From positions 1 through 57,053 of the IMG/VR virus record IMGVR_UViG_3300035148_000223: a stretch of 57,053 nucleotides of DNA. One strand, written 5' to 3'. Position 1 is the first letter of the stretch. Each line of letters opens with the position of its first letter. The position numbers and the translations under genes were made by a program. The notes beneath the pieces are model-generated. The model searched no databases and was not told the DNA's origin. It worked only from the letters and a program-made list of their open reading frames with translations. This stretch comes from a virus. Lineage: Duplodnaviria > Caudoviricetes. This document shows positions 3,890 to 19,303 of this stretch, one piece after another.

Positions 3890-3907
3890 TCAACCAAGGA
3901 GGGTGCG

Positions 3908-3949
3908 ATGGGAAGCTGCAAGGGCAAGGGCAAGGGACGGAAGAAGTGA
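3908..3949 (+). CDS. 13-aa basic micropeptide MGSCKGKGKGRKK
   Basis: Strong AAGGAGG RBS; TGA stop overlaps the GTG start of the holin-like gene. Confidence 0.5.
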   Translation: MGSCKGKGKGRKK

Positions 3950-4218
3950 ACCCGCTATACGTGACGATGCTCGGGGCGGCGCTCCGCGCGATCCTTTTGG
4001 GTCTGTGCGGGGGCCTCATCGAGAAGGGGATCTGGACGACCGGGCAAGTGGAACAGTTGGCCCTCGGGCTGGCCGGGTTCTTCGCGACCGTCGTCTGGAT
4101 TCTCTGGATCAAGTACAAGGACCGGCTGCATTTCGACGCGGCGCTCCAGACGCCAGCCGGGACGACCGAAAGCGAGATTCGGGCGTTGGTGAAGCGCGGC
4201 GAGTTGCCGCAGAAGTAG
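3946..4218 (+). CDS. Putative holin
   Basis: 90 aa, two hydrophobic helices, charged C-terminus, located in the lysis cluster. Confidence 0.7.
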   Translation: MNPLYVTMLGAALRAILLGLCGGLIEKGIWTTGQVEQLALGLAGFFATVVWILWIKYKDRLHFDAALQTPAGTTESEIRALVKRGELPQK

Positions 4219-4225
4219 AGGTCTT

Positions 4226-4612
4226 ATGGGTTGGCTGAAAAAGGCAGGCGTCATCATCGGACAGGTCACGGCGGCGGTCGTCGGTCTCGGCCCCGTCATC
4301 ACGACCCTCACCCCCACGAAAAAGGACGACGCCGCGCTCGTCGTCGTGCAGGACACCCTGAATCAGCTTGCGGGGATCGTCACGCAGGTTGAGGCGATGG
4401 CGGCGGCGCTCTCCCAGCCGTTGCCGGGGTCCGAGAAGCTGAAAATGGCGACGCCAATGGTCGCACAGGTCATTCTGGCCAGCAGCCTGATGGCCCGGCA
4501 CAAGATTGCGAACCCGGCGCTCTTCCAGCAGGGGTGCGCGAGTATCGGATCGGGCATGGCCGACGTCCTGAACTCCCTGAAGGACGACGTGGACACCATC
4601 GACAAGACGTAG
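4226..4612 (+). CDS. Hypothetical protein (lysis region, N-terminal hydrophobic stretch)
   Basis: GAGG RBS; MGWLKKAGVIIGQVTAAVVGLG; last gene of the + unit. Confidence 0.7.
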   Translation: MGWLKKAGVIIGQVTAAVVGLGPVITTLTPTKKDDAALVVVQDTLNQLAGIVTQVEAMAAALSQPLPGSEKLKMATPMVAQVILASSLMARHKIANPALFQQGCASIGSGMADVLNSLKDDVDTIDKT

Positions 4613-4632
4613 CCGCCCCTCAGAGGCACGAA

Positions 4633-4664
4633 CGCCCCGGATGGCCGTAGGGTCGTCCGGGGCG
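4633..4664. terminator. GC-rich hairpin between convergent transcription units
   Basis: CGCCCCGGATGGCC-GTAG-GGTCGTCCGGGGCG; no clear U-tract. Confidence 0.55.
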
Positions 4665-4710
4665 CAGAAGTCTTGTCCTAGCCAGAATGTGCCAGCCGTC
4701 GTGTCGATTT

Positions 4711-5088
4711 TCACCTTCGGCCGGGTGTCCCCGCTTGGGAGGCGGCAATCCAGCCGTCGGGGAGCGCATCCGGCCGAGGCTCTTCCTTCCGTCCAGCCGC
4801 CCAGCGCATCGCGAGCGTCACAAACTTGACGGCCTGCTCCTCTGAGATGACCGTGAGGACCGGGAACCCGCGCCACTCGTCGTGCCACTTGCGCTGGTCC
4901 GGGGTCAGGGGCTTCTTCCCGTTCTTGATTTCGATGACGTAGGTCCAGCCGCACGCGCCGACCAAGAGGTCTGGACAGCCATCGCCCACGGCCGCGAGAC
5001 TCTGGACCGAGAAGTTGGCCCGCTCGAAGATGCCCACGATGGCCTTCTGGTTGCCGTCCACCTTGCCGCGATGGCCACGTCGGTTCAT
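4711..5088 (-). CDS. VRR-NUC domain nuclease (Holliday junction resolvase-like)
   Basis: KVDGNQKAIV, GCPDLLVG, IEIKNGKKPLTPDQRKW motifs. Confidence 0.85.
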   Translation of the reverse strand: MNRRGHRGKVDGNQKAIVGIFERANFSVQSLAAVGDGCPDLLVGACGWTYVIEIKNGKKPLTPDQRKWHDEWRGFPVLTVISEEQAVKFVTLAMRWAAGRKEEPRPDALPDGWIAASQAGTPGRR

Positions 5089-5471
5089 TACCAGTCCTCC
5101 GGGGGTGGGGCGAAGTCTGTTTTGCGCGGGTGGCGCGTCACTTCGTCCACGATAGCGTCTTTCGTGAGGGTCCGCACGTCGGGCTTCGCCGTTGGGGTGG
5201 GCGGCGCGATGCCACGCCGGGCGAGTTCGGCCTTGACGTGGGCGACGGTGGGATTGGTTCTACGCGGGGTGTCCGAGGGGATGCGCCCGCAGGCGACGCG
5301 CAGGTCAAGTTCCGTCCACGTCTTGCGCGTGCCGTAGCCGTCTACGGTCACGACGCGGGTGTCGCCGTCGTGGTGGTAGACGTCTGTGACCGTGACGTGC
5401 TTCTGAGGGTCCTTCTCGCCGAGGCCGAGAATGTGGACAACCTCACCGATACCAAACGAGGTCGAGGTCAT
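5088..5471 (-). CDS. Hypothetical protein
   Basis: 127 aa ORF tightly coupled to its neighbours. Confidence 0.55.
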   Translation of the reverse strand: MTSTSFGIGEVVHILGLGEKDPQKHVTVTDVYHHDGDTRVVTVDGYGTRKTWTELDLRVACGRIPSDTPRRTNPTVAHVKAELARRGIAPPTPTAKPDVRTLTKDAIVDEVTRHPRKTDFAPPPEDW

Positions 5472-5730
5472 GGTGGGTGATCATCTCATGGTGTTCGGCG
5501 CAGAGGCCGACACAGTTGTCGGGGTCTGTGGGCGAACCGCCAAGCGACCGAGGCTTGACTTCATGCACATGTAGACGGCTGCCCCAGCGGGCGCGGCAGA
5601 CATAGCACCGGCCGTCCTGCCGCGCGATGACGAGACGTCGGCAATCGGCGCGGTCCTGTCGCGCGTGGAGGTCGCGCGCACGCTTCTCAGCCTTGCGCGT
5701 CGTCGGCTTCGGGAAGCGGAGTCCGGTCAT
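5443..5730 (-). CDS. HNH endonuclease
   Basis: CYVC...HVHEVKPRSLGG...NCVGLCAEHH. Confidence 0.8.
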   Translation of the reverse strand: MTGLRFPKPTTRKAEKRARDLHARQDRADCRRLVIARQDGRCYVCRARWGSRLHVHEVKPRSLGGSPTDPDNCVGLCAEHHEMITHHDLDLVWYR

Positions 5731-5739
5731 GGGTACAAC

Positions 5740-5778
5740 AAAAAAGCCCGCCCGGCCCCACGGGGGGCCGAACGGGCT
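5740..5778 (-). terminator. Rho-independent terminator
   Basis: On the minus strand AGCCCGTTCGGCCCC-loop-GGGGCCGGGCGGGCT followed by a T run. Confidence 0.75.
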
Positions 5779-5783
5779 GGTGG

Positions 5784-6377
5784 TCATGTGAGCGACTTCT
5801 GGTCGCGCTCGACGAGCTTGGCCTTGCGGCCCTCGCGCTGAAAGCTCGCCAGCATCTTGTCGGCATCCTCGGGCGAGCGGGCCTCGACGAGGACGTAGTA
5901 GGACAACTGGCCCATGCGCTTCGCCCGGCGAATCTCGGTGCCGAGTTTGCGGACGGGCCACGCCGCGCCGTCGTCGCCCTTCGCCGCCATCTCCAGCCAC
6001 TTGCGCTGCGACGGGGCCGGAAGGTCGGCGACCTCGCGGTGGTGCGAGAACGTCAGGCCGGACGCGGGCGGGTGACGATTCTCGGGCGGCACGTTCCGGC
6101 AGACCCACTTCCACTGCTCGGCGGTCGCGGGTTCGATCTGGAGCGTGTCAAGGATCTGCGAGAGTTCTTCGCTGTAGAGGTCTTCTCCGGCGATGAGCAG
6201 GTCGCCTACCCACCACTGGATTGCGCCGTGAATGGTGCCGCACCAATCGAAGACGGCTCCGAAGTCCGAGAGCGTCGGCTTGCCGGTCACGATGAGGCGG
6301 GTGGCCTCGAAGGTGAACTTCCCCGCATTGGACGGGCGCAGGGTCATCTTCGTGGCGTGCTTGTCGGGCGTGGTCAT
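5784..6377 (-). CDS. LmbU-like DNA-binding protein
   Basis: QWWVGDLL, LTFSHHREVADL, QRKWLEMA and WPVRKL motifs typical of the LmbU family. Confidence 0.7.
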   Translation of the reverse strand: MTTPDKHATKMTLRPSNAGKFTFEATRLIVTGKPTLSDFGAVFDWCGTIHGAIQWWVGDLLIAGEDLYSEELSQILDTLQIEPATAEQWKWVCRNVPPENRHPPASGLTFSHHREVADLPAPSQRKWLEMAAKGDDGAAWPVRKLGTEIRRAKRMGQLSYYVLVEARSPEDADKMLASFQREGRKAKLVERDQKSLT

Positions 6378-6703
6378 GCGGTCGGCTCCGAGACGAGCGT
6401 GTACATCCAGACGCCTTTCGAGACAAGGTCGCGCTCGATGCCGTAGCCTTGCTGCTTCAACTCGAAGATGCGCGCCCCGTAACGGTAGCAGATGCCGTTC
6501 AGCACGACGTTCGTCGCCGGTCCCTCGCGGAGCCTCGCGAGGACGCGGTCCTTGGCGGTCGCGAGTCGCGAGGCTTCGTCGGCTTGCTGCTCGGCATGGG
6601 TCTGCCAGACGGTCTGCCGCTCCGCTGGCGTGGGGAGGTCGGCGGGCCGGGTGACGGTGTAGCCGTCCTCGGCCAGACACGAGAAGAGGTCTGTCTGGTT
6701 CAC
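6374..6703 (-). CDS. Winged-helix DNA-binding protein
   Basis: RVLARL...RYGARIFELKQQGYGI; TAGGAGGACCC RBS, GTG start. Confidence 0.65.
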   Translation of the reverse strand: MNQTDLFSCLAEDGYTVTRPADLPTPAERQTVWQTHAEQQADEASRLATAKDRVLARLREGPATNVVLNGICYRYGARIFELKQQGYGIERDLVSKGVWMYTLVSEPTA

Positions 6704-7533
6704 TTGGGTCCTCCTAGCGCGCGACGCTGACTCGGGCCGGAGAGGGACCACATGCTCGCGCGCTCGCGCAAGCGGTCGTAGACGGCCATCCCGAACGCCG
6801 CCGTCATCGCCTTCGGCACCTCGGACGCCTCGGTCTCGGCCGGGATGTTGAGGACGAAGATGGTTGGGCGGTTGTTCTTCTGGCGCGCATCGAGCAGGGC
6901 GCGGAAGAACTCCTGCTGCTTGTCGGTCGTCGGCGTCTTCGTCAACTCGTCGATCACGAGGACGTCGTAGGTGGCGAGAATGTCGAGCAGTTCGTACTCG
7001 GTCTCGCCGTGGTCGTCGTCGCGGTGGCCGAAGGTCGCATTCCACCGCATCCAGATCACCTTCGCGTCGGTGTAGAGTCCGGTCTCGGTGCCTTTCTCCA
7101 GTGACCCGCGCAGCATGGCGATGGCCAGCCCGGACTTGCCGGTGCCGTTCGGGCCAAACAGCACGACGTCTGGCCGTTTGTCGCGCGGCTTGGCGAGCCA
7201 TTCACCCCCGCGCGCGGCCAGCGTCGGCTTGAGCAGGTCGCTCTTGTACGACGAGAGGGACCATGTGAGGCAGGCTTCCGGCACGCCCGCCTTGCGGAGC
7301 CGCTCGAAGAACACGCCATCGACAGACGGGGGGCCGCTGGGCCAGAGTTCGCGAAGCTGGCTGGCCGAGAGAACCTCGTCGGCCCGCTTGCTGGCGCGTT
7401 TGCGTGCGCCCGCCGGACAGAGGCAGCGCACGACGAGGAAGGTGCCGTTGAAGTCCTGCACGCGCAGCCAGCCGTCTGTGCAGTGCGGACATTCGCGGCC
7501 GACGTGATCGGCCGAGATGGCGGTGTAGCTCAT
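6700..7533 (-). CDS. DnaC/IstB-like helicase loader ATPase
   Basis: N-terminal CPHC...CLC zinc motif; Walker A GPNGTGKS; Walker B VLVIDEL; YDRLRE. Confidence 0.88.
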   Translation of the reverse strand: MSYTAISADHVGRECPHCTDGWLRVQDFNGTFLVVRCLCPAGARKRASKRADEVLSASQLRELWPSGPPSVDGVFFERLRKAGVPEACLTWSLSSYKSDLLKPTLAARGGEWLAKPRDKRPDVVLFGPNGTGKSGLAIAMLRGSLEKGTETGLYTDAKVIWMRWNATFGHRDDDHGETEYELLDILATYDVLVIDELTKTPTTDKQQEFFRALLDARQKNNRPTIFVLNIPAETEASEVPKAMTAAFGMAVYDRLRERASMWSLSGPSQRRALGGPK

Positions 7534-8282
7534 TCGTCCTCCATGAGAATCTGGGGCGGGGGCGCGCTCAGAACGTGCTTCCGATTGCGCGCCTCGGTCT
7601 GCCGCCGCAGGTCGTCGGCGTTCTGGGGCTTCTGCTGGGCGGCGAGTTTGTTCCAGCATGACGCGAGGATGGCCATGTCCTTCCCGCTCTGCTGGATGAA
7701 GCGGTCGTGGCTGTCGAAGAGCCGGGGGAGCATCGCGACGACGGCGTCGTACCCGTGCTGCTGAATCAGCCGCTTGGCGTGGGCGGCGTCCTTGCCGCTG
7801 TAGTGGGGCTTGGTTCCCACTTCTGCCCGGAAGAGCTTTTCGTGTTCCGAGAGCAGGGCCTTGATGGTGTGGGCGTTCCCCGTACGTACTGATGGATCTT
7901 GTGACGGATCTACTGACGGATCGGGTGACACCCGTGTCACCCCAGAGGTGACAGGTACGTCACCCCTAGTGGTCTCCGACGTCACCCCCAGATGTTGTGG
8001 GGTGTCAGATTGGCACCCCAAGAGATGAAGCCGCCAGACGGTCGGGAACCGGCTCGTCGCGGGCTTGTCCACCGCGATATAGCCTGCCGTTTCAAGGTCG
8101 CGCAGGCATCGTTGTACTGACCGCACGCTGATGTCGCAATCGGTCGCGATGGTCTTGACCGACGGATAGGAGCTTCGCCCTTGGTCGTTCGCGCAATCGG
8201 CCAGCTTGAGGAGAACGAGTCGGTGGGACGCCGAGGCGAGGCCCCGGACGTCCCACACGGCGGTCATGTAGCGGATGCTCAC
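7530..8282 (-). CDS. Replication initiator protein (N-terminal winged HTH)
   Basis: LVLLKLADCAND...SYPSVKTIATDCDISVRSVQRCLRDLETAGYI; immediately upstream of the DnaC-like gene. Confidence 0.82.
   Translation of the reverse strand: MSIRYMTAVWDVRGLASASHRLVLLKLADCANDQGRSSYPSVKTIATDCDISVRSVQRCLRDLETAGYIAVDKPATSRFPTVWRLHLLGCQSDTPQHLGVTSETTRGDVPVTSGVTRVSPDPSVDPSQDPSVRTGNAHTIKALLSEHEKLFRAEVGTKPHYSGKDAAHAKRLIQQHGYDAVVAMLPRLFDSHDRFIQQSGKDMAILASCWNKLAAQQKPQNADDLRRQTEARNRKHVLSAPPPQILMEDE
7925..8020. repeat. Iteron-like GTCACCCC/GGTGACA repeats inside the initiator gene (candidate origin)
   Basis: GGTGACACCCGTGTCACCC, GGTGACA, CGTCACCCC (twice), GGGGTGTCA and GGCACCCC cluster in the initiator linker, as in lambdoid origins. 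Confidence 0.5.
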
Positions 8283-9169
8283 TTGGCCCTCGTCACGAAC
8301 GTCGAGTCCTTCATCGCGCGCAGGCCCGTGACGTTGAGGTCCTTCTGCTGGCTCCGGGCCAGCGCGTCGAGGAGCTTGGACACGGGCGCGACCATCTCCA
8401 GCGTCGTGAGGCGCACGTCCGCCTCGGTCGCGAAGCGGGAGAGGTATTTCTGGATGACCTGCCCCGTGGGGTGGGCCTTCAACTGCGGCGACATGGACCG
8501 GAGCATTTCGGCCGCGACGCACGCGAGGATGAAGCTGTTGGGGTCATCGACCACGGCGCTCCACGTCGTACGCGTGTATTCGCCGTCCACCTTGCCGCCC
8601 GCTTCTGGCAGGGCCACGGGCTTGACGTTCAGCGGAGCCTCGGCCACCGACGCGGCCTGCTCTTTCAGTGCCGCCTTGACGGACTTGTCGGTGGTCGCCT
8701 TGGCGGCGGCGGCGAGTGCGGCCAGTTCTACGCGCCGCTTCTCGGCCGCTTCCGCCTCGGCCTTGCGCCGGGCCTCTGCCAACTCCCGCTCGCGCTCCTC
8801 GGCCACGCGCGCGTCGTATGCCGTGATGCTGCGGTTGCAGAGTTCTTTCTCGGACTTCGCGGGGTCAAGGAACGAGTCGCGCGTCTGGCTGATGATGGCG
8901 ACGACGTTCTTCGCCGGGTCCAGCATCTTCTTGAACGTGGCCTCGACGAGCTTGATCATCGACTGCGCGTCGCGGTAGCGCAGGGCCACCGTCTCGCGCA
9001 TCTTGGGCGTGGAGATGGGGTAGTAGACGCGGCCATCGGGTCCGGGGACCAACGCGGGCAGCGCGCTGTCGTGGGTGAACGTCGTGAACGCCTTCACGAG
9101 TTCCTCGGGCGGACGCGTGTCGATGGTGGTGACGGTCGGTGCCGCCGCAGAGCTAGACGTCTTAGCCAT
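8279..9169 (-). CDS. Coiled-coil protein in the recombination module
   Basis: GGAGGACCC RBS; long Glu/Ala/Arg-rich coiled coil. Confidence 0.7.
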   Translation of the reverse strand: MAKTSSSAAAPTVTTIDTRPPEELVKAFTTFTHDSALPALVPGPDGRVYYPISTPKMRETVALRYRDAQSMIKLVEATFKKMLDPAKNVVAIISQTRDSFLDPAKSEKELCNRSITAYDARVAEERERELAEARRKAEAEAAEKRRVELAALAAAAKATTDKSVKAALKEQAASVAEAPLNVKPVALPEAGGKVDGEYTRTTWSAVVDDPNSFILACVAAEMLRSMSPQLKAHPTGQVIQKYLSRFATEADVRLTTLEMVAPVSKLLDALARSQQKDLNVTGLRAMKDSTFVTRAK

Positions 9170-9773
9170 TGTGGGTCCTCCAGTACGATTCGAGCCGAGA
9201 AAGAAACACAGTATAGTCTTCCGGGTCTTCGTATTCACGCACGATGAGTTGGCCGTCGCGCAGATAGACCCCTAGCCGCCTGCGGGGCAGCGAGCCACGG
9301 TAGGGCGCGAGGAGGTCGTAGGCGGCGAGTTGCACGCCGTGATGCTTCGCGGGCGCGCACGTCTTGATGTCCAGCACGACTTCCCCCGCGTAGCGCGAGG
9401 TCGTGAGGATGCCGATGCGGTCCACGATGCCCGCGACACGTAGGTCGTCGCGGTAGAGGGGCGTCTCGATATGCGTGAAGTGCGGGCGGTTGACGGCCTT
9501 CCAGACCGCCCACTGGCGCAGGTAGCGTTGGTCCTCGGCGCTGGCCGAGGCGATGATGCGCCGCTGGTTCTGCTCGCTGGCAAGGTCCATCTTCACGGTC
9601 AGCTTGTGGATGCGCGTGCCGCGCTCGGCGGGACGCCCGTCCGACAGGAACTCCAGTTGGTCCTTGACCGTCTTCGGCACCGAAAGCATGGTGACGTGTG
9701 GGACGCGCACGCCCTCGAAGGTGAAGGCGTGCGCGGTCGCGTCAAAGCACAGGGGAGAGGGTCCGCGTGTCAT
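9162..9773 (-). CDS. PD-(D/E)XK exonuclease (RecB/Cas4-like fold)
   Basis: ERGTRIH, IETPLY, AGIVDRI, VLDIKT and QLAAY motifs. Confidence 0.85.
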   Translation of the reverse strand: MTRGPSPLCFDATAHAFTFEGVRVPHVTMLSVPKTVKDQLEFLSDGRPAERGTRIHKLTVKMDLASEQNQRRIIASASAEDQRYLRQWAVWKAVNRPHFTHIETPLYRDDLRVAGIVDRIGILTTSRYAGEVVLDIKTCAPAKHHGVQLAAYDLLAPYRGSLPRRRLGVYLRDGQLIVREYEDPEDYTVFLSRLESYWRTHNG

Positions 9774-10696
9774 TCGCCGGGCCGTTTCTTCGAGGCGAGC
9801 CACCCCAGCACGTCCTCGAAGTAGATGCTGGGCAGGTCGGCCGAGTGATCGACGTTGTACTTGAGCTTGATGTGTTTCTTCACGTCGTCGGGGTCACGGC
9901 CCGCCTCTTGGAGCTTGACCCACAGGAAATTGCGCTGCTTCTGGCTGATGGGATGCGGAGCCGAGGCGACCGGCTTGTCGCTCTTCCACTTGTCGGCGTT
10001 CGGGCTGTGCGGGGCCACCCGAATCTCCTGCCACTTCGGCGTCACGTCCACGCGCCGCCAGACGGCTTGCTCTTCGTTCTTGACGACGGCGATGACTCGG
10101 ATGCAGTTCGCCTTGATGAAGCGGTCCACGAACCGGCGGTCCCAGCACTCCGAGGCGATGCCGAGGTCCTTGCAGCACCGCATCAGCGCGTTGGACTTGA
10201 TCACTTCGAGCGCGGTCGCCTTCGAGACGCGCTTGTTGCTCGGGTTGTATTCGGCCTCGCCCCACGCGACGGCGCGCACGAGGTCATGCACGAGCAGCGC
10301 CCACTGCTGCATCAGCGTGGTGCCGTTGTCGTCCATGATGGGCAGGTTCAGGTTCTTCAGCGACCAGCCGCCGCTGCCGAAGACCGCTGTCAGTCTGCGG
10401 CGATACTCGACCTGCGGGAAGTAGATTTCCCCCGTGGGCAGGATGTCGATCAGGTCCGGGTCCACCGGGGCCGTGAGCGCCTTGTGCTGCTTCTCGGTGA
10501 ACGGTTCCTTGCCCCACGGGTAGCCGATGTAGGGCGCGGACGTGAGGGCAATCGGCTCGCTCGGGGTGGGCGGCGGCGGCGCACTGATGACCGTGATGAC
10601 GCCGTGGTCGCCGTGTGGCGCGCCGACGAGCGCGCGGGGTTCTACGCGCCGGGCGAGAGCGGTGGTGCGCGCAGGGGTCTTTTTCTTCGTCTTCAT
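9770..10696 (-). CDS. Mgm101/Rad52-family single-strand annealing protein
   Basis: IDILPTGEIYFPQVEYRRRLTAVFGSGGW...SNALMRCCKDLGIASECWD matches the Mgm101 core. Confidence 0.85.
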   Translation of the reverse strand: MKTKKKTPARTTALARRVEPRALVGAPHGDHGVITVISAPPPPTPSEPIALTSAPYIGYPWGKEPFTEKQHKALTAPVDPDLIDILPTGEIYFPQVEYRRRLTAVFGSGGWSLKNLNLPIMDDNGTTLMQQWALLVHDLVRAVAWGEAEYNPSNKRVSKATALEVIKSNALMRCCKDLGIASECWDRRFVDRFIKANCIRVIAVVKNEEQAVWRRVDVTPKWQEIRVAPHSPNADKWKSDKPVASAPHPISQKQRNFLWVKLQEAGRDPDDVKKHIKLKYNVDHSADLPSIYFEDVLGWLASKKRPGE

Positions 10697-10832
10697 GGGT
10701 CCTCCGTTTGCGTTTCGGGAAAAGAGCGGGTAGGATGGCCGTGGGTGCGGGTCCTCCAACTCTTACCCACTTCGGGCCTGACCACTGAACCTCCTGCCGG
10801 AGACCCAGCGTCAGGCCCGTTGCTTGTACGGG

Positions 10833-11057
10833 CTACCTCGGCGCGTGGTCGGTCGCCTCGCGCAGCGCCCACTCCATCGTATCGGCGACAGAGACGACGG
10901 CGTCCGGGTTGGCCTTGGCCAGCCGTCGGCGCAGCGTCGTCAGCAGTTCGTGACCGCTCGGCGTCAGCAGCACCGTCAGTTGCCGCGAGCGGTCTTTGCC
11001 CCGGAACAGCGAGCGCGGCCCGCCAACTCCCGGCGCAGAGGTCTTGAGCGTTGCCAT
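10833..11057 (-). CDS. Small DNA-binding protein (ribbon-helix-helix-like)
   Basis: GAAGGAG RBS; own promoter; LTVLLT...SVADTMEWALRE pattern. Confidence 0.55.
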   Translation of the reverse strand: MATLKTSAPGVGGPRSLFRGKDRSRQLTVLLTPSGHELLTTLRRRLAKANPDAVVSVADTMEWALREATDHAPR

Positions 11058-11079
11058 GTGAATGACTCCTTCTATGTCC

Positions 11080-11108
11080 AGTATATCTGCGCGCACGGGC
11101 GGTCTCAA
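11080..11108 (-). promoter_or_regulatory. Sigma70-like promoter
   Basis: TTGAGA-17 bp-TATACT on the minus strand upstream of the ATG at 11057. Confidence 0.7.
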
Positions 11109-11132
11109 GCGTTGCCCGTGCGCGCAGGGGTC

Positions 11133-11480
11133 TTACAGGTCATCCGTCGCGAAGCTCACGGCGCGAGGCGCGCGGATGTTGAACGTGACGCCGTTGACGC
11201 GCACGGCGGTTGTGGTGGAAGGCGGCTGCGTACGCGTGGGCGTGACGACGGGCGCACGCGCGAGCCGCACGGTGTCCTCGCGGTTCATGCGCTGGCTCGC
11301 GCGCCATGCGTCGATATGGCGGCAGGTCTTGTCGCCTTTCTTGAAGCGGTAGCTCGGGCAGGAACACCCGATGGTGCCTGTCGAGACGTGCCGCTTGAGT
11401 TCCCATTCCCGTCCGGGGTCTGAGTCGCTGTCGATGTAGGCGACGTGATCCCAGAGCATGCTACGGCGTCTTGGTCGCAC
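11133..11480 (-). CDS. SWIM zinc-finger protein
   Basis: CSCPSYRFKKGDKTCRHI (CxCx(n)CxH). Confidence 0.75.
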   Translation of the reverse strand: MRPRRRSMLWDHVAYIDSDSDPGREWELKRHVSTGTIGCSCPSYRFKKGDKTCRHIDAWRASQRMNREDTVRLARAPVVTPTRTQPPSTTTAVRVNGVTFNIRAPRAVSFATDDL

Positions 11481-11670
11481 GGGTCCTCCCTTCTGGGGCG
11501 GCGACAAGGATGACGCGCTTGATGTCGCGCGCGTTCGCCTCGGCCACGCGCCGGGCGTCGGTCTCGTCCGTGTACACTTCGACGGTCGTTCCCAAGAGAC
11601 CGAAGGTCCCTACGGGCTTGTGCGTGGTGCGCGAGACGAGAATCCAGCCGGGTCCGAATACCTTGGGCAT
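11461..11670 (-). CDS. Hypothetical protein
   Basis: TAGGAGGACCCATG start cassette. Confidence 0.6.
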   Translation of the reverse strand: MPKVFGPGWILVSRTTHKPVGTFGLLGTTVEVYTDETDARRVAEANARDIKRVILVAAPEGRTRATKTP

Positions 11671-11678
11671 GGGTCCTC

Positions 11679-12203
11679 CTACTCGATGTCCCACGACACG
11701 GCGTCAATGGCGTCCGCCATCTCGTCGCGGCGCGCCTGCTCCGTGTCCTCGGCGCTCTCCTCGGCGTCCTCGTCCGGCTCCTCTTCGTCCGGCTCCTCGA
11801 TGCCTTCGAGTTCATCCGCGATGCTCTCGCAGGCGTCGTAGCGGGTCTGGAGCAACTCGCCGGACGGCGCGTCCTGCAAGCTCTCCGGCATGTTGTCGCG
11901 GTTGTCGGACTGCTCCTGTCCGAGGTCTCGCACGTCGCTGGCAATCGACTCCAGCTCGCTCTTCGCCGTCGCGAAGTCCATCTCTCCCGCGCGCACGGCC
12001 TTGGCGACGTCCTCGGCGCGCTCCTGTAGGTCGTACATCTGGCCCTTGTAGGCCGAGTTCGTCAACTGCGACGCGCGGGGTTGCGTCTTGCTGACCTGCT
12101 TCGGGCCGTAGCGGTGCTTCCACCACCAGTACGAATCCCCCTTCTTCACGTCGGTTCCGGGGATGTCCTTCTGGGCCTTCTTCACGAATGTCGCTCGCGC
12201 CAT
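11679..12203 (-). CDS. Hypothetical protein with basic N-terminus and acidic C-terminus
   Basis: AGGAGGACCC RBS; MARATFVKKAQKD...YWWWKHRYG; very acidic tail. Confidence 0.75.
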   Translation of the reverse strand: MARATFVKKAQKDIPGTDVKKGDSYWWWKHRYGPKQVSKTQPRASQLTNSAYKGQMYDLQERAEDVAKAVRAGEMDFATAKSELESIASDVRDLGQEQSDNRDNMPESLQDAPSGELLQTRYDACESIADELEGIEEPDEEEPDEDAEESAEDTEQARRDEMADAIDAVSWDIE

Positions 12204-12223
12204 GTCCGGGTCCTCCTGTCGGG

Positions 12224-12691
12224 CTATAGGTCTTGCGGGTTGAACGTGATGTCGCGGACGCGTTCTACCCCCGGCTCCGAGAGCTTGGGGGTGATGCGGT
12301 TGATGGCGCGCTCGGTGCGGTCGATAGCGGCCGTGGCACGCTTGACGGTGTAGAGACTGCCCTCCTCCGCGCCCGTGCGGAGCTTGCGCCACGCCGCTTC
12401 GAGGCGCTTTTCGAGGCGGGCCTTCTGCGCCAGCAGCATGCTGGCGCGGTAGAGGTCTGTCCGCTTGAAGGCGGCGAGGGCCGCGCGCCGCTCGGCCTTC
12501 GTCTGGGCCTTGCGCGCCTCGGCTCGCCGCTTCCGAAGCTGGTCGTAGCCCCAGCGGATGTTGCGCCTGCACAGGCGGCAGGCATAGGCGCGGGACGCCA
12601 ACTTCGAGGTCTGGTTGGTCGTCCCGCACCACGGGCAATCGACGTAGGCCGCGCGCAGTTCACGAGGCTGAGTCGGCACAGTACACCTCAT
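12224..12691 (-). CDS. Zinc-ribbon plus coiled-coil protein
   Basis: CPWC...CRLC motif; basic coiled coil. Confidence 0.6.
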   Translation of the reverse strand: MRCTVPTQPRELRAAYVDCPWCGTTNQTSKLASRAYACRLCRRNIRWGYDQLRKRRAEARKAQTKAERRAALAAFKRTDLYRASMLLAQKARLEKRLEAAWRKLRTGAEEGSLYTVKRATAAIDRTERAINRITPKLSEPGVERVRDITFNPQDL

Positions 12692-13124
12692 GGCTCACGG
12701 TGGGCGGCTCGACGTCGTCTTCGCGCAAGAGTTCGAGCGCGAGGTCGCGGAGGTGGCTGTCGGGCCACAGCACGCCGCCAAAGAGGTCTGGCACCGTGAA
12801 GGTCCCGGTCTGCCACTTGTCGTCGAACATCATGTCGATGCCGCCGACGGATTGCGTGACGTGCCACTGCTTGCAGGTCGGGCAGCGGCGCTCCAGCAGC
12901 ATGACGAGGCCGACGTGCTGGTCGGGGTTGCCGTAGTAGCGGAGGTATTCCTCGTACGGGATGGGGATGTCGTGATTCATGTACGGCCCCTTCTCGTAGC
13001 TCTCCCGCGACTCGGGGAGCGGCTGGCCGTCGCTCCCCTCCGGCACGAAGGTCTCGTCGTACTCGATGCGGAACCGGCAGGTGGTCAGCACCGGGTTCGT
13101 CAGGCGATAGACCGGCACCTTCAT
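12660..13124 (-). CDS. Hypothetical protein
   Basis: MKVPVYRL; ATGA coupling; CPTC motif. Confidence 0.6.
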   Translation of the reverse strand: MKVPVYRLTNPVLTTCRFRIEYDETFVPEGSDGQPLPESRESYEKGPYMNHDIPIPYEEYLRYYGNPDQHVGLVMLLERRCPTCKQWHVTQSVGGIDMMFDDKWQTGTFTVPDLFGGVLWPDSHLRDLALELLREDDVEPPTVSHEVYCADSAS

Positions 13125-13507
13125 TTCCCTTCTCCCTTCATGGCGATGCGAACGCTGATGTTGCGGTCCTTCCAGAAGCGGTCCATGACGTGCCGCTTGA
13201 ACTTGGCGGCGGTCATCTCCGAGGCGTTGGTGGACAGGCCAACGTGGCGCTTCACGTCGTCGGCCGTGATGTAGAGGTCTTTCACGGTGCTGTCCACCTC
13301 CACCGTCGCGCGGAAGGCCCCGAAGAGGCGCTCGTAGACGTCCGCGCGGGTGGCAAACTCCTCGACGTTCGCCTCGGTGATGCGGGGCATGCCGACGAAC
13401 ATCGTCACCCAGATGAGGGTGTCGGTCGTCGGGTTGAGCTTGCCGTCCTTCGTCTTGCAGACGGTCTCGCGGTTCGCGATCTTCGAGATGTCCCAACTGA
13501 GTCCCAT
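13121..13507 (-). CDS. Hypothetical protein
   Basis: TAGGAGGACC RBS; 128 aa. Confidence 0.7.
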   Translation of the reverse strand: MGLSWDISKIANRETVCKTKDGKLNPTTDTLIWVTMFVGMPRITEANVEEFATRADVYERLFGAFRATVEVDSTVKDLYITADDVKRHVGLSTNASEMTAAKFKRHVMDRFWKDRNISVRIAMKGEGK

Positions 13508-13515
13508 TGGTCCTC

Positions 13516-14016
13516 CTACTGAAGCTCTTTCACGCCCAGTTCGCGGGCGATGAGGGCGATGAGGTTGCGGGTCTGGACGTTCGCGTTGACGATGTCTTGT
13601 AGGCCGAGGGCGAGCGCCGTGAGCCGCTCCTCGATGTGGGTGATGCGCTGCGCGACGGCGAGCAGCGTGTCGGTGTTCTGCTTGAGGGCTTTCCGGACGC
13701 CGTGTTCCCCGTTGGTCGGGAAGGGCAGCGCCGGTTCTACGGGCTGCGCCGAGGCAGCGGTCTTGTGGCGCTTGGCCTCGCGCGCCGCGCGCCGCGCCTC
13801 ACGCTTGGCGGCAGCGTCCGCCAGTCGGGCTTTCCTCGCGTCGAGGCCCGCCTTGTAGGCGGCGACGTTCTCGCGCGTGGCGAGCCGGTGGATGCGCTGT
13901 CGCCCCTCGCCCACGGCCACGCTCGGGATGCGGCCAACCTGCAAGAGGTGATTCACGGTGGTCGTCGTGTAGCCGAGGAAGTCAGCGATCTGGATCGGGG
14001 TCATCAGGTCAGACAT
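13516..14016 (-). CDS. Excisionase/MerR-like HTH protein with coiled-coil tail
   Basis: LMTPIQIADFLGYTTTTVNHLLQVGRIPSV. Confidence 0.7.
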   Translation of the reverse strand: MSDLMTPIQIADFLGYTTTTVNHLLQVGRIPSVAVGEGRQRIHRLATRENVAAYKAGLDARKARLADAAAKREARRAAREAKRHKTAASAQPVEPALPFPTNGEHGVRKALKQNTDTLLAVAQRITHIEERLTALALGLQDIVNANVQTRNLIALIARELGVKELQ

Positions 14017-14035
14017 GGGGTCCTCCGGGTGAAGG

Positions 14036-14070
14036 GGGCGTTTACACGGGTACTACCCATGTAAACGCCC
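14036..14070. promoter_or_regulatory. 35-bp near-perfect palindrome upstream of the HTH gene (operator or terminator)
   Basis: GGGCGTTTACACGGGTA-C-TACCCATGTAAACGCCC, 17-bp arms with one mismatch. Confidence 0.6.
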
Positions 14071-14086
14071 GATTGGTGCGAATCGA

Positions 14087-15166
14087 CTAGAGGTCTGTCG
14101 CCGAGAACGAGATGGCGCGGGTCCGCTCGACGACCATCGCGTCCACGGCGGTCTTGATCTGCGAGATGCTCTTGGCCACCTTCGCGCGCACGCCGCCGTC
14201 GGCATCGCGGAGGTCGTCCGGGGTGATGCCCGCCATCACCGCCTTGGCCTTCTGGACGAGCGCCGTGAGGCCCTCGTCGTTCGTGACGTTGCGGAGCGGG
14301 AAGTCCTCGAAGAACTCCGTCAGGTTGGTGACGAGCGAGTCGCGGAAGACCTTCGGCTTGCCGTCCGGGCCGGTCTGGAGCCGTTCCGCCATGTGGGCGA
14401 TGACCTCGCTGAACGCCTCGCTCATGCCGAGGCGGATGTCGGACACGACCTGCGCCAGCTTGGCCTCGGTCTTCTTCACGGCCTCGCCGTAGATGGCCGC
14501 GTCAATCGACTTCAACTGGTCCGGCACCTCGTCGATGTCCATGAAGAAGTACTCGAACTTGAACTTGCTGGCGACGACCTCCAGCTTCGGGTAGTCGGCC
14601 GGGTCGTACTGGTCGGCCAGCAGGGCGGCGGCTTCCTGCTTCAGGGCCGCGTAGCGGTCAAGGAACGCCTCGACCAACTGCTTGCGCTGGGTCTCGCGCT
14701 CGACGAGACCGTCGTAGATGGCCCGGACCTTCGCGATGGGGATGCGGTAGAGGCCCGCCATCAGGTAGGACGGCAGCGCGGCGGACGAGAGCCATATCTG
14801 GCAGGCGAGGTCGAATGCCGAGATGGCCTTGAGTTCCGGGGAGTCGAGCAGGCTCTTCTCCATCTTCAGCATCTTCTTCTCGGCAGCGGTCTGCACCTTC
14901 GAGAGGTCCGCCTTCTTCTCGTTGTTGAACCGGCGGGTGACGAGGCGCATGCCGATGGTCGCGCCCTTGACGACGGCCACGTCCGGGGTCTTGGTCTTGG
15001 CCGCGAGGATTTCCTTCGTGCGCGTGTCCGCCGTGTCCTTCGTCATCGGCGGCACCTTCGGCGCGGTTCTACGCGCGAACCGAGTGACGGTCTCGGTCTT
15101 CCGCATGGTGAACTTGCGGGCAGTGGTCTTGCGGGACGTGGTCTTGCGAGCAGTGGTCTTTTTCAC
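14087..15166 (-). CDS. DUF3150-like protein
   Basis: GLYRIP, YDPADYP and KPKVFRDSLVTNLTEFFEDFPLRNV motifs; last gene of the AAA operon. Confidence 0.6.
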   Translation of the reverse strand: MKKTTARKTTSRKTTARKFTMRKTETVTRFARRTAPKVPPMTKDTADTRTKEILAAKTKTPDVAVVKGATIGMRLVTRRFNNEKKADLSKVQTAAEKKMLKMEKSLLDSPELKAISAFDLACQIWLSSAALPSYLMAGLYRIPIAKVRAIYDGLVERETQRKQLVEAFLDRYAALKQEAAALLADQYDPADYPKLEVVASKFKFEYFFMDIDEVPDQLKSIDAAIYGEAVKKTEAKLAQVVSDIRLGMSEAFSEVIAHMAERLQTGPDGKPKVFRDSLVTNLTEFFEDFPLRNVTNDEGLTALVQKAKAVMAGITPDDLRDADGGVRAKVAKSISQIKTAVDAMVVERTRAISFSATDL

Positions 15167-15192
15167 GGTCGGGTCCTCCAGTTAGCAGCCGT

Positions 15193-15396
15193 CTAGTGCG
15201 AGTGGTGGTCGTGGGTGGTGCCGTCCGCGTGCGTGTGGACGTGGCCCGCGCGGGCCTTGACGGTGGTCTCGCCGCCGAGGTCCAAGCTGATCGTCTTCAG
15301 CAGGGCATCGGCATTCAGGTGGTTCGGCCCGGAGATGCGGCCGGTGGTGATCTTCACGTCGCCGTCCTCGGTGATTTCGATGCGGATGTCGTCCAC
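15193..15396 (-). CDS. DUF2997-like small protein with His-rich tail
   Basis: IRIEITEDGDVKITT...G..H...LGG pattern; canonical position next to DUF1257-like and AAA genes. Confidence 0.65.
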   Translation of the reverse strand: MDDIRIEITEDGDVKITTGRISGPNHLNADALLKTISLDLGGETTVKARAGHVHTHADGTTHDHHSH

Positions 15397-15400
15397 GGGG

Positions 15401-15727
15401 CTACCTCTTCGTGACCGCGTAGGTGTTCTTGCCGGTGGCCTTCAGCGACCAACCGAACTGCTTCGCGCGCTTCGCCACGACCTGATGCGCGTAGGCCCGC
15501 TTCGCGACGGGCGCGAACTCAGCGGCGTCCATGCTGGAGCCGCGCATCGTCACGCGTCCGTTCTCGAAGGAGCCGGACACGTAGCGGCCCTCGACCTCCC
15601 CGCTGAACGCGAGGTAGGCCGAGGATTCGGACACGCGCAGGCCAAGGGCCTTGAGGCCCTTGGCGAGGAGCGCGATGTCCGCGACGTCCAAGTTCACAGA
15701 GGTCTGGCGGACAGAATCACACGGCAT
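15401..15727 (-). CDS. DUF1257 (Ycf35)-like protein
   Basis: DIALLAKGLKALG...AYAHQVVAKRAKQFGW; follows the AAA ATPase. Confidence 0.6.
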   Translation of the reverse strand: MPCDSVRQTSVNLDVADIALLAKGLKALGLRVSESSAYLAFSGEVEGRYVSGSFENGRVTMRGSSMDAAEFAPVAKRAYAHQVVAKRAKQFGWSLKATGKNTYAVTKR

Positions 15728-15729
15728 GG

Positions 15730-17271
15730 TTACGACTCCTTCATGTCGGCGGTCTTGGCGATGAACGCCATCTCCGGCAGGGAGATAGCGCGCCCGCCGG
15801 ACGGGGGAAGAGCTTCCTGCCCCTGCGCCATGTAGACGCCGGGGACGTTGGCCGACAGGTAGCGCCCGTTGCACTCCTGCCGCAGCCGTTCGATCCGATC
15901 CGCCGCCGACCGCGCGAGCGGCACGACGTACGCCGCCGCGTCGAGCAGGCTGATGTCCAGCATCGACGCGAGGTAGCACAACTGCTTGATCTCGGCTCCG
16001 GTCCAGCCCTTGATGTTCGGGAGGGGCTGTTTCTTCAGGCCGTATTTCTTGAGGAAGATGGGGACGATCTTCGCCTGCTCGGCCTCGCTCGGCAGGTCGA
16101 AGAAGAAGGTGCCAAGCGTGAACCGGCGGCGGAACTCCGGCGGCAGCACGCCAATCGAATTGCAGGTCGCGATCCACAGGGCCTTGCCGCCGCTGATGGC
16201 CTGAATGACGTCGTTCGCATTCAGGATGTTGGCCTCGCTCTGGCCGACGAGCGAGTTCTTCATCGCGCCGAGGTCGTAGAGGATCGTCGGGACCTTGGCC
16301 TCGTTGCCCGCCGCCTTCGCGACGAGCGACTTCGCGGAGCCGGGGTGACCGATGAACATGAGGCCGCGCGCCTCGGTGTTCTGGAGGTAGGTGAGCAGTG
16401 CGCCAAGCTGGAATTGCGAGGTGCCGCTCGAATCGCCCGTGCCGTTGGTGCCGCTGCCCGCGAGCGCCTTTTCAATCTCGTCCATCCAGATGACGGCCGA
16501 GTAGGGGTCTTTCCCGGTGCGGATGCTCGTGATGAAGTTCTTCGCGACGTCGCAGCCACCGATGTCCTCGAAGGTCTCGGTGCCACGGTAGACGGACAGG
16601 CCCGCGACCTGTTCGATGGCCGCGTACTTCTGCTGCCAGAGCGACGGCACGTCCAGTCCATTCTCGTTGAGGCAGAGTGAGACGGCGGTCTCGGCCGAGA
16701 ATGCGGCCAACCCGGAGAGGGCATCGGCCACGCGACGTTCTACGTCGCCCGCGAGTGGGGGCAGGTTCGCGCCCACCATGAGTTTGTTCGCGATGCCGAC
16801 GAGCGCCGCGCGGTCGGGGCGGGTTTCGTCCAGCACGATGATGTCGCCCTGAAGCTCGGGCGGGGTCTTCTCTCCCGGCGGGGTGACGAGGACGAGCGTG
16901 CGCCGGTTCTGCTTGTAGAGGTCGCGCAGGTTCCAGATCCCCTGAAGCACGCCGGGGTCTGTCCAGAGCTTGTGGGCGTTGAGGACGAAGACGATGACGC
17001 GCTCCGGGGCCTTCGTCAGCTTGCGGAGCATGTCCACGGGGTTGCCGGTCGCGATGGCCGGGTCCTCGCCGCCGTTCAACTCGGTCGCGACGGGCGAACC
17101 GGCCGGGTTGAGCGGCATGATGCCGCGCACGATGTCGTGAACGAGCGCCGGGCTGGACTTGCCCAGCGTGTCGAGCAGGATGCCCACCAGCGAGGCGGGG
17201 TCCGGCGTCCGGGCCACCAGCAAGGGGGCCGAGGTGCGCCGGGCGGCGATGAAGAGGTCTTTCAGAGTCAT
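15730..17271 (-). CDS. Ycf46-like AAA+ ATPase
   Basis: Degenerate N-terminal AAA domain (IWNLRD...PPELQ); FEDIGG; WMDEIEKALAG; Walker A GHPGSAKS; ATCN...LPPEFRRRF; GWTGAEI. Confidence 0.85.
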   Translation of the reverse strand: MTLKDLFIAARRTSAPLLVARTPDPASLVGILLDTLGKSSPALVHDIVRGIMPLNPAGSPVATELNGGEDPAIATGNPVDMLRKLTKAPERVIVFVLNAHKLWTDPGVLQGIWNLRDLYKQNRRTLVLVTPPGEKTPPELQGDIIVLDETRPDRAALVGIANKLMVGANLPPLAGDVERRVADALSGLAAFSAETAVSLCLNENGLDVPSLWQQKYAAIEQVAGLSVYRGTETFEDIGGCDVAKNFITSIRTGKDPYSAVIWMDEIEKALAGSGTNGTGDSSGTSQFQLGALLTYLQNTEARGLMFIGHPGSAKSLVAKAAGNEAKVPTILYDLGAMKNSLVGQSEANILNANDVIQAISGGKALWIATCNSIGVLPPEFRRRFTLGTFFFDLPSEAEQAKIVPIFLKKYGLKKQPLPNIKGWTGAEIKQLCYLASMLDISLLDAAAYVVPLARSAADRIERLRQECNGRYLSANVPGVYMAQGQEALPPSGGRAISLPEMAFIAKTADMKES

Positions 17272-17295
17272 TGTGCGGTCCTCCATACAACGGGC

Positions 17296-17324
17296 ATTAT
17301 ATCACAGGCAGAAAACGTCAGCAA
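17296..17324 (-). promoter_or_regulatory. Strong sigma70-like promoter for the AAA operon
   Basis: TTGCTG-17 bp-TATAAT with extended -10 TG. Confidence 0.8.
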
Positions 17325-17345
17325 ATCCGGGGGCCGAGAAGGGTT

Positions 17346-17591
17346 CTACGCGCGGTCGGGCCGGAAGTCGAAGTAGATGCGCGGGTTGTGCTTGAAGAGC
17401 AGTGTGCCACGCACGCCGTCGGCCTTGCGGACGACGATGACGAACGGGGCCATGAAGCCCTCGACGTCGAAGTCCTCTTGCAGCGTGGTCGTGGTCCACG
17501 TCTGCGGCTCGCCCTCCACGATGGCGTCGGCGTCGGTGTGGGCGATGATGGTTCCCAAGATGAGTCGCCGGAGTTCGGTGGGGTCGTCCAC
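17346..17591 (-). CDS. Conserved hypothetical phage protein
   Basis: WTT..LQEDFDVEGFMAPFVIVVRKADGVRGTLLFKHNPRIYFDF. Confidence 0.7.
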   Translation of the reverse strand: MDDPTELRRLILGTIIAHTDADAIVEGEPQTWTTTTLQEDFDVEGFMAPFVIVVRKADGVRGTLLFKHNPRIYFDFRPDRA

Positions 17592-18407: not shown

Positions 18408-18953
18408 TCAGCAGCCCTCCATGATGTCGATGTTCTCTTCCGGCACGCGCATGCGGCGCGCGTAGTCCTCGCTGTCGTCGAACCGTGTCGTGCCGTCGTC
18501 GCAGTCGCCGTCGAAGCCCGGCGTGTGGTAGCCGTCGCAGGACGCGCACTTCCACAACGTGACGCGGGCGCTCGCGGCGACTACCCACTTGCGGCCACGC
18601 TTGATGAGCAGGGGCGCGTCGAGCGGCTCGCCGTCCTCGGTGATTCGCATGGGGCTACCGAAGTCGTAGCGGCTGTCCCAATGCGGTCCCATGAGGAACC
18701 ACGCGCCCCGGTCGCTGTAGAGGCGCGCCCGCGAGTATTCGTTGATGCGCGCCTTCGTGGTGTAGGAGTACCACCCGCCCGTCCGGAGCGTGATCCGGCC
18801 GTCCGGGTGGTACGTGACGACGTCCGTCCAGTGGTAGGTCACCGCGATGTCGCCGTCGAGGGTTCTACGCAGGCGCGTCGAGCGGCCCGGTAGCGGGCGG
18901 CTGTCCTTGCGGCCCAGATAGGCGTTTGCCTGTGCGAAGGTGCGAATGATCAT
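18408..18953 (-). CDS. Conserved hypothetical phage protein
   Basis: IAVTYHWTDVVTYHPDGRITLRTGGWYSYTTKARINEY plus C-terminal CxxC...HxxxFxGDC. Confidence 0.65.
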   Translation of the reverse strand: MIIRTFAQANAYLGRKDSRPLPGRSTRLRRTLDGDIAVTYHWTDVVTYHPDGRITLRTGGWYSYTTKARINEYSRARLYSDRGAWFLMGPHWDSRYDFGSPMRITEDGEPLDAPLLIKRGRKWVVAASARVTLWKCASCDGYHTPGFDGDCDDGTTRFDDSEDYARRMRVPEENIDIMEGC

Positions 18954-19303
18954 CACCACCCCCCGTGCGGCGGGCCGTAGTCGATGGGGGTGATGTCCAC
19001 CTCGCCCGACAAGACCGCTTCCATCTCGGCGATTTCGGTCTTCCAGCGCGGGCTGCGGTCGCTGATGTCGTCCACGCGGTAGCGCCCACGGCGTTCGTTG
19101 AGGATGGCCCACGCCTCGTCGAGGCAGCGGGCGTCCACTTCGAGGATCGGGGCGTGGAACGAGTGGCCGTTGCGGCGGTGCGCGATGCGCTTGATGTCGA
19201 GCCGAAGCTCCAGCCAGCGGAGCTTCGGATCGTCGGTGCGCTTCGTGAAGAGAACGTACGTGATGGGCCGAGGGGGCGTCGGCCAGCGCGCGGGCTTCGG
19301 CAT
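18953..19303 (-). CDS. Hypothetical protein
   Basis: TAGGAGGACCC RBS. Confidence 0.65.
   Translation of the reverse strand: MPKPARWPTPPRPITYVLFTKRTDDPKLRWLELRLDIKRIAHRRNGHSFHAPILEVDARCLDEAWAILNERRGRYRVDDISDRSPRWKTEIAEMEAVLSGEVDITPIDYGPPHGGW

Follow-up and report, generated by a model that had tools for sequence, protein, structure and literature searches.

Why should unrelated proteins of one phage end in the same ten residues, and what might read such an ending? The question is raised by IMG/VR virus record IMGVR_UViG_3300035148_000223, which was analysed here in its entirety; "the window" below means this whole record, a single contig of 57,053 bp with a GC content of 66%. The record is classed as linear and has a CheckV completeness of approximately 70%. 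Its early genes form a leftward block (approximately 4.7–22.3 kb), and three of them, coding for a DUF3150-family protein, a small SWIM-type zinc-finger protein and a zinc-ribbon/coiled-coil protein, end in R-x-[IV]-[ST]-F-x3-D-L. The comparisons described below identify this ending as a disordered, conserved, element-specific terminal peptide that is common to a Cdc48-like motor, its constant partner DUF3150 and a variable set of clients.

Three unrelated early proteins share a C-terminal decapeptide

In all three minus-strand genes the arginine is located exactly 10 residues before the stop, and the equal spacing reported in a preliminary description of this DNA was verified at the coordinates in Table 1. 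Among 938 stop-to-stop segments with a minimum length of 30 amino acids, only these three match R.[IVL][ST]F...DL$. The GC content at third codon positions (GC3) of the three genes is 0.82–0.95, and each is preceded by a ribosome-binding site of the GGAGGACCC type. With the phage's own amino-acid composition a random C-terminus fits the pattern with P = 1.7e-7, and 1e-5 matches are expected in 59 genes. When the last ten residues of all genes were compared all against all, the three pairs scored 32, 23 and 20; in none of 500 trials with random internal 10-mers did the third-highest pair come up to 23, the third-highest score observed.

The core of the pattern, R.[IV][ST][FL], occurs five times in the 15,165 positions of the 79 predicted proteins; each occurrence falls in the last 20 residues, and there are no internal ones. 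By these three measures the frequency of the tail is beyond chance. Besides the three decapeptides, the core is found as RAISL in the Cdc48/Ycf46-like tandem AAA+ ATPase, where it had been noticed before, and as RAVSL in a glycosyltransferase-like protein, which is probably a fifth carrier. The glycosyltransferase domain (PF13524, E = 1.4e-24) covers residues 195–324 and the motif starts at residue 331, which places the tail outside the fold. An open reading frame (ORF) at 27974–28558 on the plus strand, which the preliminary description had listed alongside the tail bearers, had to be discarded: its end, RPPLADPNDL, has only the final DL in common with the others, and chance alone would give about 0.4 DL endings in 79 genes.

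The preliminary description had also suggested conservation at the protein level since the DNA differs. Between pairs, 18–21 of the 30 tail-coding bases are identical, and one or two of the four to six shared residues are encoded differently (Ser by AGC or TCG; Leu by CTG, CTA or CTC). Such codon differences are compatible with protein-level conservation, but at a GC3 of approximately 0.9 they are no proof alone. The sequence 3′ of the stop is different for each of the three genes.

Homologues keep the tail

Conservation in homologues had been set beforehand as a test of the motif, and the tail was found to be kept. Two homologues of the DUF3150-like protein with 89% (P0002) and 57% (P0003) identity end in RAISFSSTDL and RAISFSSEDL, respectively; the single homologue of the zinc-ribbon protein (P0346, 86% identity) ends in RDISFTDKDL, and the nearest SWIM homologue (P0195, 43% identity) in RSISFDTADL. 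For P0346 and P0002 the longest contig has an identical length of 3,835 bp. The motif residues are kept in these tails and the x positions drift. Similar DNA was not found by blastn of positions 11000–17400 against 50,697 phage records. Searches of IMG/VR with the DUF3150-like protein as a single query, with the zinc-ribbon protein and with the SWIM alignment gave no match, nor did a search of metagenome contigs with family alignment A2.

For whole families we counted the motif in the last 20 residues and, as a control, in a window 30–50 residues from the end. The motif core consists of an invariant arginine, any residue, a hydrophobic residue, any residue and usually another hydrophobic residue (R-x-h-x-h). 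It is present in 54 of 74 DUF3150 homologues (control: 2 of 74), typical ends being GGRKFRFDEEES, RQISFDDEA and RAIDLED, and the tail arginine is at least 90% conserved in the alignment. The AAA family yielded 981 matches; among the best 120 of these (45–51% identity) all have R-x-h in the last 20 residues, compared to 22 of 120 in the control window, and Arg499 is invariant in 60 of 60 aligned homologues. The SWIM family comprises 162 relatives in 1.84 billion representatives, and 121 of the 150 relatives listed carry R-x-h-x-h at the end (control: 15 of 149). Their C-terminal consensus, (G)ETFTV-RRAISFG, is located downstream of an invariant C-x-C...C-x-H, and the tail arginine is invariant in the alignment. 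Judged by these alignments, three unrelated families, DUF3150, AAA and SWIM, share the tail far beyond this phage, in metagenomes, phages and plasmids.

One DUF3150 homologue (P0062) has no R-x-h motif at its end but VDNDIPF, which is SSB-like (SSB, single-stranded DNA-binding protein), as though its docking peptide had been swapped for the tag of another hub.

The tail travels with a four-gene module

In the window the AAA gene is followed by genes for a 108 amino acid protein, a 67 amino acid protein and the DUF3150-like protein. The order AAA, DUF1257, DUF2997, DUF3150 is also found in 55 GTDB loci, mostly from metagenome-assembled genomes of Bryobacteraceae, in which the first small protein is a DUF1257 by Pfam, and the Manganitrophus plasmid CP114559.1 (L063) is annotated with exactly this order. 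Among 80 IMG/VR loci retrieved with AAA, 69 contain DUF3150 by blastp, and blastp relatives of the DUF1257-like and DUF2997-like proteins were found in 16 and 17 of them, respectively. The 57 loci retrieved with DUF3150 contain AAA in 45 cases and DUF3150 in 51. Co-occurrence of the tail with the AAA module, on which the earlier proposal depended, is borne out by these counts.

The cultured Tunturiibacter phage Tunturi_3 (PP885686.1, L062/L145) encodes, one after the other, the ATPase (gp103), two small ORFs, four further small ORFs and a DUF3150 homologue (gp96; tblastn E = 3e-25, 79% of the query). The annotation of gp96 as "HNH endonuclease" looks wrong.

As in Bryobacteraceae-type loci generally, the module of an acidobacterial metagenome-assembled genome (L010 from GTDB, 3602–14334) is located inside a larger mobile-element block. 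Upstream of the module such blocks encode a SNF2-type helicase ending in QLSLF and a Gp157-like protein; a radical-SAM/Fer4_12 protein is encoded between DUF2997 and DUF3150, and an SSB ending in ...VPF, PRTRC_E, a prokaryotic ubiquitin and an E2-like protein follow downstream. The SWIM family profile had no match in five Bryobacteraceae-type genomes with the module.

Each element has its own spelling

Within the window the tail is spelled RAIS[FL], RAVS[FL] or RDITF, with RAISL on AAA and RAISF on DUF3150. Other elements spell it differently. Bryobacteraceae loci have G[KR]R.FR[DE] on AAA and GGRKFRF[DE] on DUF3150. At locus L061 DUF3150 ends in RRGISFGGLTAA (RRGISFGG) and the adjacent SWIM protein in RRAITFGSMTGGR (RRAITFGS). 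The DUF3150 protein of plasmid CP114559.1 carries KRKIRIL (tail KRKIRILPEAQEAVA), and an 847 amino acid hypothetical protein of the same plasmid (10480–13023) ends in AKRKIRLSPGS, copying the DUF3150 tail encoded 1.8 kb upstream. Five proteins each share R[AK]I.[ILV] at their ends at locus L085 and RR.I.[FLP] at locus L138; three of the latter have PRR.I, and one, encoded next to AAA, is SWIM-like. The candidate tails of Tunturi_3 (gp96 DRKFHLEGEEF, gp63 VRPFTFEV, gp131 VRKIRLDNE, gp117 IRRFWPSLK and AAA gp103 APRFEEDG) are suggestive of a common ending on several proteins.

The similarity of the cores of AAA and DUF3150 within a locus was scored for 57 non-redundant pairs. The score was 3.88, compared to 1.76 ± 0.45 after shuffling, and none of 10,000 shuffles reached 3.88. 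The core of the own locus was furthermore found on 15 of 2,042 further ORFs, compared to 3.5 ± 1.7 (maximum 7) with the cores of other loci. Pfam was searched with 10 of these extra carriers: a WGR domain was found in one, and the other nine are orphans. Each phage or plasmid thus has its own spelling, found on AAA and DUF3150 alike and in some cases on additional orphan proteins.

Identity and predicted structure of the module proteins

The family names given in the preliminary description were right for the DUF3150 and Ycf46-like proteins and probably for the SWIM protein; the names DUF1257 and DUF2997 are reached by profile–profile comparison only and not by Pfam. The ATPase matches PF00004 (E = 1.5e-9, residues 309–357), and its P-loop, GPPG.AKS, is conserved in the family consensus. 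Its AlphaFold2 model has a predicted local distance difference test (pLDDT) score of 92, falling to approximately 50 for residues 490–518, and its N-terminal half is itself AAA-like. The top Foldseek matches are Rix7, NVL and p97/Cdc48 (E of approximately 4e-14 to 1e-13, 560–620 aligned columns). The fold of the model is that of the tandem-ring unfoldases p97/Cdc48/Rix7/NVL; hexamer formation and threading are predicted.

The DUF3150-like protein has 74 homologues, many of them with PF11348 (P0004–P0021 are among these carriers, E = 1e-56 to 1e-48), and PF11348 is present in 13–29% of the members of its nearest Atlas clusters; the protein itself does not match PF11348 directly, even at E ≤ 5. 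In its AlphaFold2 model (pLDDT 83) a final helix precedes the disordered decapeptide (residues 350–359, pLDDT approximately 40). Foldseek gave no match in the PDB with E ≤ 0.001, VIA-align returned generic helical bundles only (Z ≤ 8.1), and the profile found nothing meaningful among PDB sequences. The disorder predicted for the tails in the AAA and DUF3150 models suggests that they act as free linear motifs.

The two small module proteins have no match to their Pfam families. PF06868 (DUF1257) finds nothing in the whole record, yet it is matched in a Synechococcus elongatus control genome. Compared by hhalign, the family of the first protein aligns with Pfam-verified DUF1257 with a probability of 86.7% (E = 4e-6, 83 columns). 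A search of the PDB with the DUF1257 profile matched only designed repeat proteins, and this was read as compositional. The second protein does not match PF11211; its family aligns with a DUF2997 set, which includes L138:13079–13273 (PF11211, E = 1e-15), with a probability of 92.8% (E = 4e-7, 47 columns). This protein and 12 aligned relatives have a conserved His-rich end (H-x-H-x-H ... H-x-H), and an invariant Asn-His stands where canonical DUF2997 has Gly-Cys, the invariant Cys being replaced by His. The His-rich end and the swapped ligand hint at metal binding. The stretch KKREF[HY]V in the DUF2997-like proteins of Bryobacteraceae was considered as an internal copy of the tail and rejected; the aligned stretch is not basic in verified DUF2997 proteins of other lineages.

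The SWIM protein matches PF04434 with E = 0.15, which is under the cut-off (its L138 relative: E = 0.015), and C39, C41, C53 and H55 of the C-x-C...C-x-H pattern are invariant in 31 homologues. For the zinc-ribbon protein only weak Zn-ribbon matches were found in Pfam. A complex prediction with AAA residues 1–488, the DUF1257-like and DUF2997-like proteins and DUF3150 residues 305–359 gave a score of 0.00; it was run with no controls and counts neither for nor against binding.

Table 1. Features of the window discussed in the text. Columns: position in the window; strand; protein; motif or further details.
Position	Strand	Protein	Motif or details
14087–15166	-	DUF3150-family protein, 359 amino acids	tail RAISFSATDL, codons 14090–14119
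11133–11480	-	small SWIM-type zinc-finger protein, 115 amino acids from GTG 11480 (alternative extent 11507)	tail RAVSFATDDL, 11136–11165
12224–12691	-	zinc-ribbon/coiled-coil protein, 151–155 amino acids	tail RDITFNPQDL, 12227–12256
15730–17286	-	Cdc48/Ycf46-like tandem AAA+ ATPase, 513–518 amino acids	RAISL 15778–15792, 20 residues from end
42617–43666	+	glycosyltransferase-like protein, 349 amino acids, in the tail-gene block	RAVSL 43607–43621, 19 residues from end
15401–15727	-	DUF1257 (Ycf35)-like protein, 108 amino acids	module member without tail, directly after AAA
15193–15396	-	DUF2997-like protein, 67 amino acids	module member, His-rich end
9770–10759	-	Mgm101/Rad52-type annealase	PF06420, E = 1e-38
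9162–9803	-	PD-(D/E)XK exonuclease	
8279–9169	-	"exonuclease"	PHROG
6700–7659	-	IstB/DnaC-like ATPase	

A predicted address tag and its alternatives

With moderate confidence we read the decapeptide as this phage lineage's spelling of a disordered C-terminal linear motif, the predicted address tag of the AAA+/DUF1257/DUF2997/DUF3150 module. The alternating hydrophobic residues suggest a beta-strand, into which the tail would fold upon binding. All carriers would plug into a single site, and this site would be encoded by the element itself, since the spelling changes with the element without a discernible tie to the host. Its most likely location would be the AAA+ hexamer or the DUF1257/DUF2997 pair, because the tag is invariably accompanied by these genes and by no others. 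The ATP-driven machine would then recruit, remodel or assemble the carriers in early infection, beside the recombination genes (Mgm101-type annealase and PD-(D/E)XK exonuclease). The comparisons support placing the tail in the class of short linear motifs that recruit proteins to an AAA+ machine. The preliminary description had proposed a short linear tag tied to the AAA/DUF1257/DUF2997 machine or to a host factor; conservation, chance and co-occurrence tests support such a tag, with the module as its probable hub and docking as a likelier role than that of a degron.

Several points weigh against the address tag. Binding and receptor are predictions, and the two small proteins of the window are only remote relatives of DUF1257 and DUF2997. 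The shuffle test of AAA and DUF3150 cores is uncorrected for the relatedness of loci, and part of its signal is shared ancestry. The generic regular expression, applied to proteins other than AAA and DUF3150, has 61 matches in the bin 6–10 residues from the end, compared to approximately 43 per internal bin; from this modest enrichment extra carriers appear to be occasional, not universal. The motifs of AAA and the glycosyltransferase are located approximately 20 residues from the end, not 10, lack the final DL and are perhaps no true counterparts of the three decapeptides. For the glycosyltransferase, the tail is backed by a within-genome statistic, and the lone homologue found (L146, 31% identity) has no tail extension; this homologue is encoded on a 22-kb contig, estimated to be 42% complete, in which AAA was not seen.

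Of the alternatives, the one that fares best, although we consider it unlikely, makes the tail a substrate tag, a degron or unfolding-initiation signal that is threaded by the Cdc48-like ATPase or passed to a protease, and not a stable docking peptide. The fold of the ATPase is that of substrate-threading unfoldases, and the tags are disordered termini, at which such motors start threading, as is known for ssrA/ClpX and Cdc48; as small early proteins, the carriers might have to be cleared at a given time. It would be odd, however, for a destruction signal to be present on the ATPase and DUF3150 in nearly every locus, and the motif of AAA itself stands 20 residues before the C-terminus. A protease gene was found in the module neither at the L010-type locus nor on plasmid CP114559.1.

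We give little credence to the idea that the tails bind each other, six ATPase tails pairing with client tails as homotypic beta-strands, so that the motif is tag and receptor at once. The invariant arginine suggests a specific acidic or phosphate-binding contact, and the core has just 5–6 residues, whereas the known motifs of amyloid signalling are far longer. Pairing of this kind resembles the motifs common to NLR-type ATPases and adjoining effectors in bacterial and fungal amyloid signalling; it would explain why all partners in an element have one spelling, and the alternating R-x-h-x-h fits one beta-strand.

Docking on a host hub (sliding clamp, SSB, RNA polymerase or a host protease) instead of the own module seems similarly improbable. 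Terminal peptides often recruit proteins to SSB or the clamp, the carriers adjoin recombination and replication genes, and one DUF3150 homologue, P0062, has the SSB-tail-like end DNDIPF. Yet the spelling tracks the element's AAA and DUF3150 and no obvious host group, the tail has neither the Gln of the clamp motif nor the acidic-Pro-Phe end of SSB, and Bryobacteraceae loci have QLSLF (SNF2 helicase) and D..VPF (SSB) ends as separate motifs. Finally, a tail without function, arising by chance, as a DNA-level gene-end signal or through a recent recombination event that gave three genes one 3′ end, is almost certainly the wrong explanation: the tail-coding DNA is indeed 60–70% identical between pairs, but chance is excluded by the tail and core statistics, the three stops are followed by different sequences, the x positions vary around preserved motif residues in orthologues with 43–89% identity, and the SWIM and DUF3150 families bear the motif over hundreds of divergent sequences.

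Comparison with known systems

The module resembles the Ycf46/Ycf35/DUF2997 set of cyanobacteria and plastids, which on mobile elements is joined by DUF3150: the window and CP114559.1 agree in the order of the four genes, and the window encodes a PF00004 ATPase and a protein with strong DUF3150 homology. The window differs in its two small proteins, which are only remote relatives. In the parts of the literature that were searched, including PMC4284462 and 10.1101/2025.10.13.678797, we found no published function or partner for any member of the module.

With p97/Cdc48 and Rix7/NVL the phage ATPase shares the tandem AAA fold and a flexible C-terminal tail; sequence identity is 13–16%, and the p97-type N domain is absent. 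Partners of p97 are recruited via the short motifs SHP, VIM and VBM on the N domain, and PUB/PUL domains bind the p97 tail. Unlike in the p97 arrangement, the phage motor and its clients bear the same motif.

The closest logical analogue are the HbYX/GQYL tails of proteasomal activators, in which an ATPase and unrelated non-ATPase proteins end alike and dock on one partner. The phage tails differ from these: the penultimate residue is Asp and not Tyr, the ending is re-spelled in each element, and no proteasome-like partner gene is present in the module (L010-type locus, CP114559.1). The SSB tail D-D-D-I-P-F and the beta-clamp motif QL[SD]LF are likewise terminal peptides that gather proteins of DNA metabolism on one hub. 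The three phage tails are neither, as had been stated at the outset: they start with Arg and lack Gln-Leu, they end in D-L without Pro-Phe, and they are built from an arginine and alternating hydrophobic residues, while both classical motifs are found on other proteins in Bryobacteraceae loci. A resemblance to the PP1 docking motif "RVxF" and to the MuA/ClpX tag was dropped, as nothing ties either to the module.

Recruitment to a hub by a short terminal peptide is thus a known principle. This tag, its machine and its re-spelling by lineage are not described in the literature searched, in agreement with the initial impression that the motif is not a described one. The tag offers an experimental handle on a module of many phages, plasmids and prophage-like regions, with the 10-residue peptide as bait. 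The list of tagged proteins in a phage would tell which processes the motor serves, here proteins of the recombination region and a glycosyltransferase. The tag also offers a route into the long-unexplained genes ycf46 and ycf35 and could give orthogonal peptide–receptor pairs for engineering.

We tentatively suggest a programmable protein-addressing system of phages and plasmids, in which the tail of the Cdc48-like motor would be a private "postcode" of each lineage and any gene could join the clientele via an ending of 5–10 residues. The arginine may act in trans on the ATPase, with clients not just binding the motor but switching it on; the arginine in the tail of p97 is the basis for this analogy to trans-activation. 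Were this the case, the orphan ycf46 and ycf35 of plastids and cyanobacteria would be part of a tag-reading machine of this kind.

Neighbouring genes and a second common tail

The tagged genes adjoin a recombination and replication block (6700–10759, minus strand; Table 1). Candidate signals flank the region. A TATAAT hexamer (within 17287–17311) is located 7 bases 5′ of ATG 17286, the candidate upstream start of the AAA gene; this ATG has no Shine-Dalgarno sequence, and the start favoured by a ribosome-binding site is 17271. Downstream of the stop of the SWIM gene a GC-rich inverted repeat is found (11090–11130). Hexamer and repeat may be the promoter and terminator of an early operon.

From approximately 23 kb on, genes are encoded rightward; portal, major capsid protein, tail terminator and tape measure protein are encoded there, as are a methyltransferase and a ParB-like protein. 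The location of the glycosyltransferase-like gene in this block, between the tail terminator gene (42103–42495, PF12691) and the genes preceding the tape measure gene, is unusual and suggests glycosylation of virion proteins.

Two further minus-strand genes have a C-terminal tail of a different kind in common. The protein encoded at 5088–5471 ends in KTDFAPPPEDW and the one encoded at 18953–19303 in TPIDYGPPHGGW, which gives the pattern [TI]-D-[FY]-[AG]-P-P-x3-W-stop. No Pfam or PHROG family matches either protein, and BLASTP detects no similarity between the two (E = 0.89). Their tails score 28, the second highest value of all tail pairs in the 59 genes. This second tail may be another docking peptide with a different partner.

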